64,000 nucleotides of DNA. It comes from a virus. Its lineage: Duplodnaviria > Caudoviricetes. The number at the start of each line of letters is the position of its first letter. Within the stretch, counting starts at the first letter, position 1. Positions 3,736 through 10,438 of the stretch are shown here, piece after piece. The translations under genes and the position numbers were made by a program. The stretch is taken from the IMG/VR virus record IMGVR_UViG_3300030376_007544, positions 64,361 through 128,360 of that record; one strand, 5' to 3'. The notes below the pieces were generated by a model. That model saw only the letters and a list, made by a program, of their open reading frames with translations, searched no databases and was not told the DNA's origin.

Positions 3736-4425
3736 CTACCCTTCCTCTTCATCAATGGTTACATCGATAGTAACATCAACGATCTCAACATCTTTGACGG
3801 GACTATCTGTCCCATCGTCTTCCTCTATAACACCCAATGGCGTCCCTACGGCTTCCTCCGAAACTTCATCTAAGATATTCGAAACAACTTCTTGATCCAA
3901 GACACCAGAAGAGGCCATTAACTCTAATAAAGCCAAAGACTCATCCTTAGCTGCATCCTTATTGCCAACTTCTTTCACTTGACCAACCAACGAAGATTGT
4001 ACCTCAATAACCTCCTGAGAATCAAGCCCAGAGATAGCAACCTCAGTACGCTCCACGTTCATGCCCAGTAACTTCGACCTGCGATCCATGATACCTAATA
4101 CAGTACGCACTGCATTCTGATCAGGTTCCACCATTATCTCAGTACCGTCGTCCAACGTCTCCCGTCGAAACTGGGTCAAAGGCCATAAAGACTTCTGCAT
4201 TTCATCAAGACGTTCTAATTCTAACCTAAGAACTTCTGGGTAAGAAAGGAACGCCTCAGAGTTAAGCCTACCTAACACTCTACGAGAAGCAGCTGCTACT
4301 GCTGCAGCCGACATGTTAAACCGTTTACCGATATCAACATTCGACAAGCCAGACTTCTTTAGCGAGAAAATCCGCAAATCCCTCTCAGCGAGGAACTCTC
4401 TTGAAAGCTTGTTAGACTCAACCAT
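3736..4425 (-). CDS. HTH protein, probable terminase small subunit
   Basis: N-terminal HTH (GLSNVDIGKRFNMS) plus LELERLD...LWP...AVRTVLGIMDRRSKLLG pattern; acidic tail; leaderless start. Confidence 0.55.
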   Translation of the reverse strand: MVESNKLSREFLAERDLRIFSLKKSGLSNVDIGKRFNMSAAAVAAASRRVLGRLNSEAFLSYPEVLRLELERLDEMQKSLWPLTQFRRETLDDGTEIMVEPDQNAVRTVLGIMDRRSKLLGMNVERTEVAISGLDSQEVIEVQSSLVGQVKEVGNKDAAKDESLALLELMASSGVLDQEVVSNILDEVSEEAVGTPLGVIEEDDGTDSPVKDVEIVDVTIDVTIDEEEG

Positions 4426-4461: not shown

Positions 4462-4848
4462 TCAACTCCGATTTAAATACGACCAAATCTGCGCTAATGT
4501 GAAACGCTCTGCCTTAACACCACGACGTTGAGCTTCAGCAGCCAACTGACGGGGAGTCAAACCAGCCCAAACTCCGTGAAGGTCTGATGGGGGAAAACTG
4601 AGGGCATAATCGAGACATTCTTTACGTACATCACACTGTCTACACATACGTCTAGCCTCTGATATATAGGACAGGTCTTTGTGTTCTTTGGGGAACATCT
4701 TGTCCGATTTACCTTTGCAAAGTGCTTCTTGTGACCAGTGTTGAGTGGGTTCTGGTGGGTTATTGTGGGGTGAAGTGGGATCGTTTTCGGAGGGGTGTGG
4801 TTGTATAGTAGTCTTTGTGGTTTTGGTTATTTTGTGTAGTTTATTCAT
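4462..4848 (-). CDS. whiB: WhiB-family [4Fe-4S] transcription factor
   Basis: W...ALC, CRQC, C spacing and GVWAG turn (variant of G[IV]WGG). Confidence 0.92.
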   Translation of the reverse strand: MNKLHKITKTTKTTIQPHPSENDPTSPHNNPPEPTQHWSQEALCKGKSDKMFPKEHKDLSYISEARRMCRQCDVRKECLDYALSFPPSDLHGVWAGLTPRQLAAEAQRRGVKAERFTLAQIWSYLNRS

Positions 4849-5211: not shown

Positions 5212-5535
5212 TTAGCAGAAACTTTGACCACATCCACAGGTTTTCTTGGCCCTATTATTGGATATTTTGAACCCTGATTCACCTAATCCGTCATGGTAAT
5301 CTAGGCTTGCTCCTTCTAATAGGTCTGCACTTACTGGGTCTGTTACTACCTTTACTTCTCCGAATAGTTGTTCTATATCTTCTTCTGTGATGTCTGATTC
5401 AAAGTGCATTTCGTAATTCATGCCTGCACACCCGCCGGGTCGAACTCCTACCCTTAAGGCTTTAAGGGTTTTATCTTCTTCAGCAGCTAGTAATTCAGCT
5501 ACTTTAGTTGATGCTTTTTCTGTTAAAGTTATCAT
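5212..5535 (-). CDS. iscA: A-type Fe-S cluster carrier (IscA/ErpA/HesB family)
   Basis: ITLTEKA...LRVGVRPGGCAG...CGCGQSF signature. Confidence 0.95.
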   Translation of the reverse strand: MITLTEKASTKVAELLAAEEDKTLKALRVGVRPGGCAGMNYEMHFESDITEEDIEQLFGEVKVVTDPVSADLLEGASLDYHDGLGESGFKISNNRAKKTCGCGQSFC

Positions 5536-5875: not shown

Positions 5876-5982
5876 TAATATTTACTTGTCCCGAATGCAC
5901 GAGATGCAATAATATATCCAGCAATAACCACCGCAGTTGTGGTAGCTAATGCCCATAGTGTGCGTTTAACCGGCTTTGTCAT
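5875..5982 (-). CDS. 35-aa single-TM peptide (MTKPVKRTLWALATTTAVVIAGYIIASRAFGTSKY), not in the ORF track
   Basis: GAGGGG RBS; TAATG overlap with the downstream gene. Confidence 0.6.
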   Translation of the reverse strand: MTKPVKRTLWALATTTAVVIAGYIIASRAFGTSKY

Positions 5983-6292
5983 TAGAATTCCCCTCTAAAT
6001 GTAAGCCCCAAATGATGTTTACTCCATGTCTGTCATGTCTCATTGGGGGTAATTTTTCTGATTTCTCTGTATCAACAGGAGGGGAAACGGCAATCATTGC
6101 ATACGTTCCTTCATATGCTGCTATTCTAAAATCTTCCAATTGAGAAAGTTGCCCTAAATCATAGGATTCTTTAACGTAACGCTTATCCGTGTCACTGGTT
6201 ATTTTTACATAATTATGCAGGATATTCACTTTCCAGTGCTGTTCTCCTGCATAAAAGTCATAATCAAAATCTTTTATTTCCGTTTTATGCAT
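5966..6292 (-). CDS. Hypothetical protein
   Basis: TAATG coupling within the operon. Confidence 0.7.
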   Translation of the reverse strand: MHKTEIKDFDYDFYAGEQHWKVNILHNYVKITSDTDKRYVKESYDLGQLSQLEDFRIAAYEGTYAMIAVSPPVDTEKSEKLPPMRHDRHGVNIIWGLHLEGNSNDKAG

Positions 6293-6618
6293 TATTTATC
6301 CACTTCTTCGTTTGGTATATACGCTTTTTCGTATGATTCTGACGTAAGTGTCTTATTTAGAGTTTTGTTTATTTCATACCCTCTGTAGTGTATATACTCA
6401 GCAATAGCGTCATCTGGCCTCTTGTTCCACTCAATTGAATGGACTAAAGCGTCAGCATGTGTTATTAAAGTAAGTATTGTATCCCTCGCCATTAATAAAT
6501 CTTTGGAGAGAGTGGAATAGTTTAAATCACGGAAGAATTCCTCTGCATGCTCTAGGTTGTCAACAACCCTTGCAGGTGTTTCTAGTCCCTTAGAAATACG
6601 CAGAGTAAATTCCTCCAT
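6292..6618 (-). CDS. Hypothetical protein
   Basis: Tightly packed in the operon. Confidence 0.7.
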   Translation of the reverse strand: MEEFTLRISKGLETPARVVDNLEHAEEFFRDLNYSTLSKDLLMARDTILTLITHADALVHSIEWNKRPDDAIAEYIHYRGYEINKTLNKTLTSESYEKAYIPNEEVDK

Positions 6619-6781: not shown

Positions 6782-7201
6782 CTACGATATCTCTATTGTA
6801 CGAAGTTTCTCGTACTCTGGAATGATTCTTTCCAAATTTATACTCAATAAACCGTCAGAAAGATCTGCGGACTTTACTTCTACGTTGTCTGCAAGCCTAA
6901 ACTGCTTTCTGAAATGCCTGTGAGATATCCCACGATGCAAAACAGTTCGGTTATCTTCTGCTTGTTTCGTAGAAATAATCAGGATACCGTTTTCTACTGT
7001 CATGTTTAAGTCTTCTTTGTTGAATCCAGCGACAGCAAGCTCGATAACAAAGTTTTCCTCGTCCACTTGGACAAGGTTATACGGTGGGTAAGCATGATAT
7101 GACTCATTGTACTCCAACAGTGACTCAAAATGGTCAAAGAGGGAGTCAAACCCAATACTAAAAGGCCGTAGCCTGTTTAAGACACTAATATCTGTGCCCA
7201 T
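6782..7201 (-). CDS. hsp20: Small heat shock protein, IbpA-type Hsp20
   Basis: IGFD..F, YPPYNL, IELAVAGF, LHRGIS.R.F...F.LA, A.L.DGLL.I.L motifs. Confidence 0.95.
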   Translation of the reverse strand: MGTDISVLNRLRPFSIGFDSLFDHFESLLEYNESYHAYPPYNLVQVDEENFVIELAVAGFNKEDLNMTVENGILIISTKQAEDNRTVLHRGISHRHFRKQFRLADNVEVKSADLSDGLLSINLERIIPEYEKLRTIEIS

Positions 7202-7267
7202 AATAACCTCCTAAATAGCAAAGTTAAATTAATTTTTTACAAAGACCCAATTGGCATCTTCTGTAAA
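7199..7267 (-). promoter_or_regulatory. ROSE-like RNA thermometer in the hsp20 5' UTR
   Basis: AACUUUGCU-AUUU-AGGAGGUU hairpin pairs UUGCU with the SD leaving a bulged G; a second hairpin lies upstream. Confidence 0.7.
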
Positions 7268-7268
7268 T

Positions 7269-7296
7269 ATTATAGCGCTTTATAGATACAAGTCAA
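7269..7296 (-). promoter_or_regulatory. Promoter for hsp20, TTGACT-16-TATAAT
   Basis: Consensus hexamers. Confidence 0.7.
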
Positions 7297-7299
7297 ATA

Positions 7300-8232
7300 T
7301 TAAAAGTCAGGGTTTTCTTCACTAAATACCCATGCGATACCAGAAGAGGGGTGCCGAAGCCTAGCAATTGCTTTTGCTTCTAACTGGCGTATACGCTCAC
7401 GAGTTAAACCCATTACTTCACCTATCTCCTGTAGAGTCATAGGGTTGCCTATATTGCTTAATCCGTGGTGCATTGTGAGTACTTGGAACTCACGCTCTGG
7501 TAGAATGGATAGTGCTTTTAGAATATCTTGGGCAAAACTTTGTCTAATACCAAGCTCATCAACCTCAATCTGGTTTGGATCTGCTAACGTATCCGCATGA
7601 GAAACATAACTATCATCAGAAAGGGGTATGTCTAACGACTCTAAACGAGTGTTTTCCATATGTGACCAGATATCATCAAACTTATCGGTATCCCAATCTA
7701 AATACTCTGCTAATTCGTGTCGAGAATACTCCCCTGCGCCGTATGTAGACTCAAACTCCTCAAGGGTTGCCGCCAACTTGCGCACATCTGCTTCTACATG
7801 CATAGGAAGGCGTATGGCACGACCAGCATTAGCGATTGCTCTTTGGCAGGCTTGGCGACACCACCACGTGGCGTATGTTGAGAACTTGAAACCTTTATCG
7901 GGATCAAACTTATCTACAGCACGCATCAAGCCAATTGTTGCTTCTTGAATTAGATCTTCGTACTCCATACGAGACTGCGAACGAGCGTACTTTGCTGCCG
8001 TGTCCATTGCTAGTCGTAAATTATGCTCAACAAAGTTATCTTTGGCACGTTGTCCTTCACGAACTGCCGCATTTAATGCTCTTCTTTCGGGAAACTCTAA
8101 AGTTATTCCCTCAATAAAACAAGTATTTAACTTTTTTGAGGCCTTTTGCCCTTCTATTACAGCCCTGCCCAGAACAATTTCTTCTTCTCTGGTAAGTATT
8201 CTATGTTTAGAACTATTAACGTAACCAGCCAT
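7300..8232 (-). CDS. Phage sigma70-family factor, RpoD/SigA-like (regions 1.2-4)
   Basis: ILTREEE, NLRL, DLIQEA.IGLMRAVDKFDPDKGFKFSTYATWW, TLQEIG...LTRERIRQLE.KA..RLRHPS. Confidence 0.95.
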   Translation of the reverse strand: MAGYVNSSKHRILTREEEIVLGRAVIEGQKASKKLNTCFIEGITLEFPERRALNAAVREGQRAKDNFVEHNLRLAMDTAAKYARSQSRMEYEDLIQEATIGLMRAVDKFDPDKGFKFSTYATWWCRQACQRAIANAGRAIRLPMHVEADVRKLAATLEEFESTYGAGEYSRHELAEYLDWDTDKFDDIWSHMENTRLESLDIPLSDDSYVSHADTLADPNQIEVDELGIRQSFAQDILKALSILPEREFQVLTMHHGLSNIGNPMTLQEIGEVMGLTRERIRQLEAKAIARLRHPSSGIAWVFSEENPDF

Positions 8233-8354
8233 TATTTGTCCTCCTCGGTGTTTGTTTGGCTAGATGGGTGGCGAAGTTTAGCCTCTTCCCTATCGAGCTC
8301 TTCAAGTTTATCATTCATTGCCTGTTGAAGCAATGCATCTAAGTAAATTTTCAT
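8232..8354 (-). CDS. 40-aa peptide with a sigma region-4 tail motif (MKIYLDALLQQAMNDKLEELDREEAKLRHPSSQTNTEEDK), not in the ORF track
   Basis: GAGGAG RBS; own promoter upstream; TAATG overlap with the sigma start. Confidence 0.8.
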   Translation of the reverse strand: MKIYLDALLQQAMNDKLEELDREEAKLRHPSSQTNTEEDK

Positions 8355-8404
8355 ATATACGCTCCTCGCTGTTCGATGTGTAATTTTTGAGTTACTGTGG
8401 TATC

Positions 8405-8433
8405 ACTTTAGCACATAAAAGTACCAAAGTCAA
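8405..8433 (-). promoter_or_regulatory. Promoter for the peptide-sigma operon, TTGACT-17-TAAAGT with extended TGn
   Basis: Hexamers and spacer counted by hand. Confidence 0.7.
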
Positions 8434-8506
8434 GGCTAAAACGGAACTTTTGTCAGTAAGATGTAAGTTTTGTATCTATGTTGATACTTTTGTATTTAAT
8501 TATGGC

Positions 8507-10438
8507 CTAAAATTCTGTACTAACTCGGTTAAAAAGGTGGTCTTTGAGAGATTTATCGCCATACTTGTTTCGATCTTCATCACTAAGGTCAACAACACAG
8601 TGTTCGTCCTCTGTATATAACGTTCCCCATGAGTCACCACCTAGATCAGGTTCAGATGTAATGTGTACATCTTTAAGTATCATTTCCATTGTAACGCCTG
8701 CATGACGGCATAATTCTTCTGCATCTTCCTTAGGGAAACTAAATAAGATCTCATCATGTATAGGTAGTAATGCATACTCCCACAACCCAGCCTCTTGGAC
8801 CTTTATCATGGCTCTACCTAGAACATCTCTTGCCGTGGACTGTATGCAATAGTTTAGGGCAGCATATGGGCGCTCTTTATCTACAGGAAGTTTCCTGCCT
8901 GTATGGGTTATCACGTAATTTCTTTGCCCACGTTTAACTGGGGCTGCCAATTGGTGAGAATACTTTGTCACTCCCTGATATGTGGAATCAAACAAGTCGC
9001 ATACTTTTTGCGCTTCCTCAACAGATAATCCAGATTGTCTCGCTAGAGTTTTAGGTCCAGCTCCATAAACTTTACCAAAATTAACAGTTTTTGCAATTTT
9101 TCTTGTAACTCCTGTGTTGTCAGCAGTTGCTTGATGTAAATCATCATTTTTACTAAAAATATCTAACATTACAGGATCTTGGGATAGTGCTGCAAGGACT
9201 CTCAACTCTACACCAGAAAAGTCAATTGACGCCATAGAACAGCCTTCTTCCGCTAAAAACATACGGCGTATAGCATCTTGACCAGCAGGTAATTGCTGTA
9301 AAGGAGGATTACTTATTGACATTCTACCTGTTCTAGCCTGAAGACTGTTTATGCTAGGGTGAACTCTACCGTGCGCATCCATACTGTCTATGCATGCAAT
9401 AACATAAGCATCTCTCCATTTAGCATTGTTTTTCGCTGCCATTACCGACTTTGCCAGCATGGCCGCATTTCCCAATGAGTCATCATTTGCTATGTTAGTT
9501 AGTATTGTTTTATCAACTTTTAACGCACCAGAATTCGTAGTTTCTATAAGTTTAGCCCCTAATGATTGAAGAGCCTCCGCTACTTGCTTAGTGGCGTTAT
9601 GGTTTTCAACCCCAAAAGAACTAATTATACCAAGGTGGCGTTCTTCCTCCTTAGTCATCTCTTCAGCAAGGTTTCTAGCGTAGTCAACATCAAGACGAAT
9701 ACCACGTCTTTGCATGTCCACGACAAGCCTAGATATAGTATGCTCGTATTTAACTAGATGTTCCATTGTCTTACGCTTAACTTCGTCCCTTAACTTAGGA
9801 AAAAGTCTAGCAGTTAAGATAACATCTGTACCTGCGTAATGAACAAGAGTGGGGTGTGACGCAGGAATGTTCTTCCAGCCTTCTTGAATACTCCAGCCCT
9901 GTTTCTTAAATATGTCTTTAAGTGCCGAGTCAGAGTCAGGTGCTGACGGATCAACGTGGAATGTTGAGAGCATCTTTAGCCCGTGTCCTACACCACCTTC
10001 AGATCTACTCCTAGGATCTGCTAAATGAGCAAGTATCTTTGTGTCATACGTTCGCTCTAGCATCTCTATAGCATCAACGTGCCCATGCCTATCAAGTCCT
10101 AACGTATCATAAGCTGCGTTATGCGCTAGAAGCCTGTAGTCTGTGTCATTCATGACTATATCGATTGACTTCTGGAACCAAGGCTCTGTCCACAAAAATA
10201 CGTAGGCAGTGTCCTTGTCGCCCCATTGAATGCTTTTAATCTCCCACTCTGGTGAGAAAATGTCTAAACCAGTTGCTTCGATGTCATATGCCAACGGACG
10301 CTTTCTCTCAAAAAGCCAGTCTCTAAAGTCAGCAAATTGATCGTCTGACCTTACGAGAATAACCTCGCCTAATGAATTGTCTGCTGTATATGTATCGTGT
10401 AACCAGTCGTCTAATAGTGTTATCGGTGCATCTGTCAT
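8507..10438 (-). CDS. polA: Family A DNA polymerase (3'-5' exonuclease plus polymerase; Phe at the 762-equivalent position)
   Basis: YDIEATG ExoI, ARTGRMS, DFSGVELR motif A, AKTVNFG..YG motif B, IHDE motif C. Confidence 0.96.
   Translation of the reverse strand: MTDAPITLLDDWLHDTYTADNSLGEVILVRSDDQFADFRDWLFERKRPLAYDIEATGLDIFSPEWEIKSIQWGDKDTAYVFLWTEPWFQKSIDIVMNDTDYRLLAHNAAYDTLGLDRHGHVDAIEMLERTYDTKILAHLADPRSRSEGGVGHGLKMLSTFHVDPSAPDSDSALKDIFKKQGWSIQEGWKNIPASHPTLVHYAGTDVILTARLFPKLRDEVKRKTMEHLVKYEHTISRLVVDMQRRGIRLDVDYARNLAEEMTKEEERHLGIISSFGVENHNATKQVAEALQSLGAKLIETTNSGALKVDKTILTNIANDDSLGNAAMLAKSVMAAKNNAKWRDAYVIACIDSMDAHGRVHPSINSLQARTGRMSISNPPLQQLPAGQDAIRRMFLAEEGCSMASIDFSGVELRVLAALSQDPVMLDIFSKNDDLHQATADNTGVTRKIAKTVNFGKVYGAGPKTLARQSGLSVEEAQKVCDLFDSTYQGVTKYSHQLAAPVKRGQRNYVITHTGRKLPVDKERPYAALNYCIQSTARDVLGRAMIKVQEAGLWEYALLPIHDEILFSFPKEDAEELCRHAGVTMEMILKDVHITSEPDLGGDSWGTLYTEDEHCVVDLSDEDRNKYGDKSLKDHLFNRVSTEF

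Follow-up and report, generated by a model that had tools for sequence, protein, structure and literature searches.

Directly 5' of the sigma factor gene of an uncultured marine phage lies a small open reading frame whose product carries a short segment resembling the C-terminal tail of that same sigma factor. The locus raises the question of whether this ORF is a genuine gene and, if so, what a free copy of a sigma tail could do for a phage. The window analysed here is the whole 64-kb stretch of DNA that forms the second half of a 128-kb viral record, which is 87% complete and carries two whiB genes. The host is most likely a marine actinobacterium, because the window DNA recurs across marine metagenomes and WhiB-like genes are restricted to Actinobacteria and their phages (bioRxiv 10.1101/2025.06.05.653497). 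The small-protein gene (8232..8354, minus strand; 40 aa plus stop) encodes MKIYLDALLQQAMNDKLEELDREEAKLRHPSSQTNTEEDK and stands in a series of minus-strand genes in the order polA (8507..10438), peptide, sigma factor (7300..8232), hsp20 (6782..7201), an A-type Fe-S carrier of the HesB/IscA family (5212..5535) and whiB (4462..4848); the carrier, beside whiB, is given for context only. In the whiB-hsp20 region, three minus-strand ORFs of 108–229 aa (3736..4425, 5966..6292 and 6292..6618) belong to no Pfam family.

A sequence-only reading of this DNA had described the small ORF as possessing its own promoter, a GAGGAG ribosome-binding site and a TAATG overlap with the sigma start. The ORF (8354..8232), the ribosome-binding site and the overlap were found as described. 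The GAGGAG site (8362..8367, minus strand) lies 7 nt 5' of the ATG, and AGGAG-type sites also precede the homologues. The peptide TAA (8234..8232) and the sigma ATG (8232..8230) have one base in common, resulting in TAATG at 8230..8234, and the sigma ribosome-binding site, GAGGAGG (8240..8246, minus strand), is embedded in the final codons of the peptide. As judged from these signals, the embedded site and the overlap give a predicted translational coupling of peptide and sigma. The promoter held up in part: a promoter-like site, TTGACT-17-TAAAGT with an upstream TG (extended -10), is present at 8405..8433 (minus strand) as a consensus match only. It falls in the 152-nt gap that follows polA, a gap of just ~21–24 nt in some relatives. 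A second promoter-like site, TTGACT-16-TATAAT (11/12 consensus; 7269..7296, minus strand), comes right after the sigma stop and before hsp20. Four metatranscriptome runs examined over 7250–8520 yielded a sole match, a 48-nt piece, less than 90% alike, in a conserved stretch of sigma.

The sigma factor is a group-1/2-like protein of 310 aa containing regions 1.2 (weak), 2 and 4, with Pfam Sigma70 r2 and r4 matches, and its C-terminal end reads ...EAKAIARLRHPSSGIAWVFSEENPDF. Its region 4.2 tail, ARLRHPSS (residues 290–297; 7342..7365, minus strand), is the counterpart that the peptide resembles: BLASTP of peptide against sigma aligned AKLRHPSS with ARLRHPSS (7/8 identical, E=0.001). The peptide had been read as ending in EEAKLRHPSS. 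The sigma-like motif is indeed there, but it occupies residues 25–32 and is internal, with 8 further residues C-terminal to it; the codons for residues 25–31, A-K-L-R-H-P-S, lie at 8262..8282 (minus strand). A six-frame search of the entire 64-kb window found RHP[STA] twice, in the peptide and in sigma, and nowhere else. A conserved ...IRHPSSA... reading runs antisense to polA in many relatives (for example at ~2108, minus strand, in L010); it arises from a conserved motif of PolA itself and does not occur in the window.

To place the peptide among its relatives, we gathered sigma homologues at 67–93% identity from viral contigs, metagenome contigs and public gene sets. A small ORF usually fills the slot between polA and sigma in these relatives, and public gene sets label the peptide homologues hypothetical proteins. 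In every family member examined the peptide stop overlaps or abuts the sigma start (-3 to +14 nt), and three of the most divergent members, when checked, had the order polA-peptide-sigma in 3/3 cases. Searches of 5.8 billion proteins and 1.84 billion cluster representatives returned matches only from this one family of small proteins (40–77 aa), which accounts for just 12 cluster representatives among the 1.84 billion clusters. No relative was found in Pfam, PHROGs or GenBank phages, the ESM Atlas gave no usable match, and a PDB sequence search with the family profile produced a chance match only, to an amine oxidase (E=0.39). A related-locus search with the peptide alignment matched 38 stretches, none of which passed tblastn, for which so short a query is poorly suited. 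A search for fused or longer forms of the peptide, a weak one, also found none. The peptide is a real gene family, conserved across relatives of this phage.

Conservation was counted over 44 distinct 18-residue cores from marine viral and metagenome contigs. The sequence-only reading had named conservation of His-Pro in homologues beforehand as a point on which it could fall, and R-H-P was present in 44/44 cores. The window peptide is thus one member of a phage family of 40–77 aa with an invariant R-H-P core, for which the pattern is [AS]-[KMIR]-x-R-H-P-[SA]. Numbering from the Arg, position -3 is Ala (32) or Ser (12) and position +3, after the Pro, is Ser (32) or Ala (12), with no other residue at either position. 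Position -2 is K in 21 cores, M in 17, I in 3 and R in 3. Ten different residues occur at position -1, positions -4 and -5 are free, and position -7 is Glu, Gln or Asp in 43/44 cores. Outside the core the protein has been remodelled repeatedly (40–77 aa), with extra helices either N-terminal or C-terminal to it. Peptides of the window clade form a single continuous helix of 40–47 aa, those of the crown group (~70 aa) have an amphipathic helix at the N-terminus and a long linker, and those of the basal groups have a short N-terminus and an additional C-terminal helix.

The pattern of conserved and free positions corresponds to one face of sigma. The C-terminal domain of M. tuberculosis SigA has been crystallized with WhiB1: His516 and Pro517 go into the [4Fe-4S] pocket, Lys513, Arg515, Ser518 and Ser520 form the rim of the interface, WhiB1 binding is lost in SigA H516A, H516F or P517A, and the enclosed pocket results in an oxygen-stable cluster (PMC6954389). 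In the WhiB3 complex, SigA Ser512 and Arg515 lie within a polar network and H516A abolishes binding (PMC10245118). All seven M. tuberculosis Wbl proteins engage SigA through an aromatic patch, at a site centred on His516-Pro517 (bioRxiv 10.1101/2025.06.05.653497). The statement of the sequence-only reading, given there as established, that WhiB1, WhiB3 and WhiB7 bind SigA through R515-H516-P517 is borne out for H516 and P517, whereas R515 sits at the interface yet is not needed for binding by WhiB1 or, in pull-down assays, by WhiB3. When RHP is aligned to R515-H516-P517, the peptide family keeps positions 512, (513), 515, 516, 517 and 518, and the position equivalent to 514 varies freely. SigA position 514 is a Leu that we take to face sigma's own core; because its equivalent is not conserved, the peptide probably does not imitate the flap-binding side of sigma. 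The conserved and free positions of the peptide match the WhiB-facing side of sigma-A region 4 in the published WhiB1 and WhiB3 complexes. Docking of sigma-A region 4 to Wbl proteins requires His-Pro at a helix C-cap (PMC6954389); all family cores contain His-Pro, and an AlphaFold2 model of the window peptide puts it directly after the end of a helix. The interface neighbours are likewise present: a small or small polar residue at 512, Arg515, Ser518 and, in part, a basic residue at 513.

The resemblance is confined to this element. The region 4.2 tail of sigma-70 proteins (SigA S512–S518 in M. tuberculosis; ARLRHPSS in the phage) and the peptide both have [A/S]-[K/R]-x-R-H-P-[S/A] at a helix C-cap. 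In contrast to sigma region 4, the peptide lacks a helix-turn-helix, -35 contacts and residues that bind core or flap, and is a free protein of 40–77 aa. It does not match the helix-turn-helix profile of sigma-70 region 4 (PF04545) or any other Pfam family. For the window peptide, AlphaFold2 predicted a helix over residues 2–28 that stops at Arg28, followed by H29-P30 and a flexible tail (pLDDT 80). The model of a 72-aa form showed disorder over most of its length, around a short helix that likewise stops at RHP. The modelled helix and disorder around RHP fit a motif that would fold on its partner.

Candidate partners are encoded by the phage itself. The sequence-only reading had placed a whiB gene at 4462..4848 (minus strand), and Pfam agrees (PF02467, E=1.4e-14). 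This WhiB-like protein is of a long type (128 aa), with a Pro/Thr-rich N-terminal extension and a basic C-terminus, and its four Cys (C44/C69/C72/C78) and the aromatic patch residues W38, M51-F52 and W94 vary little or not at all among 86 homologues. Among solved structures, Streptomyces WhiB in its RNA polymerase complex is the nearest to it, and it was also aligned to WhiB1. A second whiB paralogue, of a short type (~75 aa), is found outside the window at G000:C1:15660-15833; its patch residues are W, FF and W. Thus, both phage Wbl proteins carry the sigma-binding aromatic patch, and the phage sigma retains its RHP tail. Contigs that contain both sigma and the long WhiB (G000, G003, G011 and G012) are all peptide-positive, and the peptide-negative contigs end before the expected whiB position; in the peptide-negative G008, a marker gene that elsewhere lies 3–6 kb from whiB is 2 kb from the contig end. 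Three 200-aa proteins (P0042, P0044 and P0048) have an RNA polymerase alpha C-terminal domain (PF03118) joined to a WhiB domain closely akin to the window WhiB (68–74% identity).

By analogy with the SigA complexes, we tentatively favour, at a little under even probability, a reading in which the peptide displays the knob by which sigma docks Wbl proteins, detached from the remainder of sigma, and would thereby occupy the Wbl pocket as a decoy. That the peptide binds any Wbl, and which Wbl it binds, is the part of this decoy reading that we infer. The more general proposal, that a free phage copy of the sigma tail is a natural ligand of the WhiB-like [4Fe-4S] pocket and competes there with sigma region 4, is plausible on the same analogy, at a slightly lower probability. 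In a clade of uncultured marine actinobacterial phages, the small-protein gene would be co-translated with the phage sigma, and its product would be little more than an alpha-helix capped by Arg-His-Pro-Ser, copying the recognition helix of sigma region 4.2 in its last turn and C-cap, the knob that enters the [4Fe-4S] pocket of Wbl proteins. Occupation of the pocket would be competitive, holo-Wbl taking the peptide instead of sigma region 4. One outcome might be the withdrawal of Wbl proteins from sigma-RNA polymerase, either by draining host Wbls from host sigma (a decoy) or, for the two Wbls that the phage itself encodes, by acting as a timer or buffer relative to the phage sigma, which would come from the same mRNA as the peptide. 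Alternatively, the peptide might cap the oxygen-labile cluster of free Wbl, such as the phage's own WhiB, in oxic sea water. By such means the phage could switch Wbl-dependent transcription off or pass it to its own sigma. The decoy model requires specificity or timing, because blocking Wbl proteins in general would affect those of the phage too, along with their presumed pairing with the phage sigma.

How the gene is distributed relative to sigma was followed on a sigma tree built by FastTree and rooted on a 46%-identical outgroup. The peptide lies 5' of 38/52 scorable distinct sigmas (38/50 without two outgroup sigmas, both peptide-less). Since the clade's deepest branch has it and four separate subclades lack it, the peptide is, as read from this tree, ancestral to the clade and was lost at least 4 times. 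No copy was found elsewhere in five peptide-negative viral records, in a search for which the genome of the window served as positive control, and 58 more distant phage sigma loci (28–46% identity) had no upstream small ORF with RHP[SA] (0/58). Because it was lost at least 4 times while sigma and the short WhiB stayed, the peptide appears to be dispensable. One sigma subclade without an RHP peptide (L019, L020 and L105) has an acidic 71-aa ORF in the slot, reaching from 212 nt upstream of sigma to its start, which it overlaps. MAFFT placed SQTP of this ORF under RHPS and aligned its C-terminal helix to that of a sister-lineage peptide (L115); the idea that it is a decayed peptide homologue was dropped, having no support from hhalign or BLASTP.

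Where the peptide is retained, it has in places changed in the same way as its sigma. At the base of one clade both sigma and peptide went from RHPS to RHPA, with different Ala codons; as an exception within this clade, one subclade has a peptide with RHPS beside a sigma with RHPA. In L095-L110, the sigma tail reads ESKAIARLRHPAS and the peptide ...ESKARHPAF...; both carry two derived residues, S in place of A and A in place of S. The L095-L110 changes arose on neighbouring branches of the sigma tree, and codon identity between peptide and sigma shows no excess there. The parallel changes of peptide and sigma (RHPA; EAK to ESK), each one tree event, are suggestive.

These patterns bear on a different explanation, in which the phage sigma or RNA polymerase is itself what the peptide works with (as a cofactor, an anti-sigma, or an assembly factor made in fixed ratio with sigma) and its RHP contacts a non-Wbl partner such as a reader of the sigma 4.2 tail. 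The gene always lies directly 5' of sigma with its stop overlapping or abutting the sigma start, an arrangement typical for proteins acting together, yet such a role gives no reason for a protein that binds sigma to carry a copy of sigma's tail. The confinement of the family to this sigma clade and the changes that the peptide and the adjacent sigma made in parallel (RHPS to RHPA, EAK to ESK) also speak for a sigma partner, but in lineages without the peptide sigma is almost unchanged. Additionally, no partner class other than the Wbl family is known to need the His-Pro pair, and the unconserved equivalent of sigma's core-facing Leu argues that the flap-binding side is not what the peptide imitates. 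We consider this explanation unlikely.

Codon-level comparisons bear on a further explanation, that the sigma 3' end was once partly duplicated and the ORF is what is left, kept as a leader ORF that brings ribosomes to the sigma ribosome-binding site or opens it, with no function in trans. As first claimed, the codons of the shared motif differ between peptide and sigma (CGC/CGG, CCA/CCC, AGC/TCT), and the conclusion drawn from this, protein-level conservation and not a recent DNA duplication, was corroborated by synonymous sites near saturation. Among 70-aa forms of the peptide, the synonymous difference per site (pS) was 0.5–0.87, and dN/dS was 0.16–0.85 in 10/15 pairs, synonymous sites being saturated in the other 5. 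At residues common to both, a peptide and the sigma of its own genome had identical codons in 64/158 cases (0.405), compared with 0.391 for the sigmas of other genomes, indicating no recent duplication and no ongoing gene conversion. A reading of the locus as an RNA element was rejected, the conservation being at the amino-acid and not the nucleotide level. From these comparisons, selection is on the peptide as a protein and not on its DNA.

A leader ORF would account for the sigma ribosome-binding site in the final codons of the ORF and for the stop that overlaps the sigma ATG, and several losses of the ORF without loss of sigma agree with it. For a coupling device alone, however, the sequence of the peptide should not matter, yet all 44 cores have R-H-P and the A/S and S/A positions, and this core stayed fixed while synonymous sites became saturated and all else, length included, changed. 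EAK-LRHPS matches sigma EAKAIARLRHPS if a four-residue gap, or one helical turn, is allowed, so that EAK...LRHPS is readable as the sigma helix minus one turn; against a duplication, hhalign of the peptide family with the sigma alignment covered only 8 columns (the motif only) at a probability of 10%. The leader-ORF explanation is thus improbable. Least credible, and in our judgement very improbable indeed, is that the core is a cis-acting nascent-peptide signal that tunes sigma translation by ribosome pausing: the ORF is upstream, coupled and contains a short, invariant, proline-containing motif, but an arrest motif sits at a fixed distance from its stall site, whereas the Pro-to-stop distance in the family ranges over 7–33 residues with no fixed geometry between exit tunnel and stop or sigma ribosome-binding site, and RHPS is no arrest motif known to us.

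The reading of the peptide as a Wbl decoy has difficulties of its own. The conserved Glu at -7 has no in-register counterpart in sigma and is not accounted for by the sigma analogy. Additionally, the RHPA covariation is a single event, and one subclade breaks it.

Several known phage strategies resemble the proposed one. T4 AsiA and gp67 of S. aureus phage G1 are small early phage proteins that re-route transcription via the region 4 interface. Whereas AsiA and gp67 bind region 4, the peptide resembles region 4 and would bind its partners, and it has no sequence similarity to either. The phage DNA mimic Ocr is a cheap imitation of a host surface that soaks up the protein reading it; Ocr mimics DNA, while the peptide would mimic a protein helix cap, with an Fe-S transcription factor as its target. 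Mycobacteriophage TM4 WhiB is cited in bioRxiv 10.1101/2025.06.05.653497 as inhibiting host WhiB2 function. TM4 WhiB is alike in that a phage protein disturbs the Wbl-sigma axis of its actinobacterial host; there the protein is itself a homologue of Wbl proteins, whereas the peptide, on its inferred function, would imitate the sigma side. Literature searches for a sigma-tail decoy of Wbl proteins gave no such description, which does not in itself prove that there is none.

If the decoy reading is true, the peptide would be the first known decoy on the sigma side of the Wbl-sigma interface, and it would show that the sigma half of this interface, too, is a point at which phages attack or manage it. 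The peptide would then define the smallest sequence that the Wbl pocket accepts and would provide a ready-made probe or competitor for Wbl-sigma binding. Whether or not the target proves to be another, the peptide represents a new family of small proteins under strong selection, tied to the phage sigma, in abundant uncultured marine phages.
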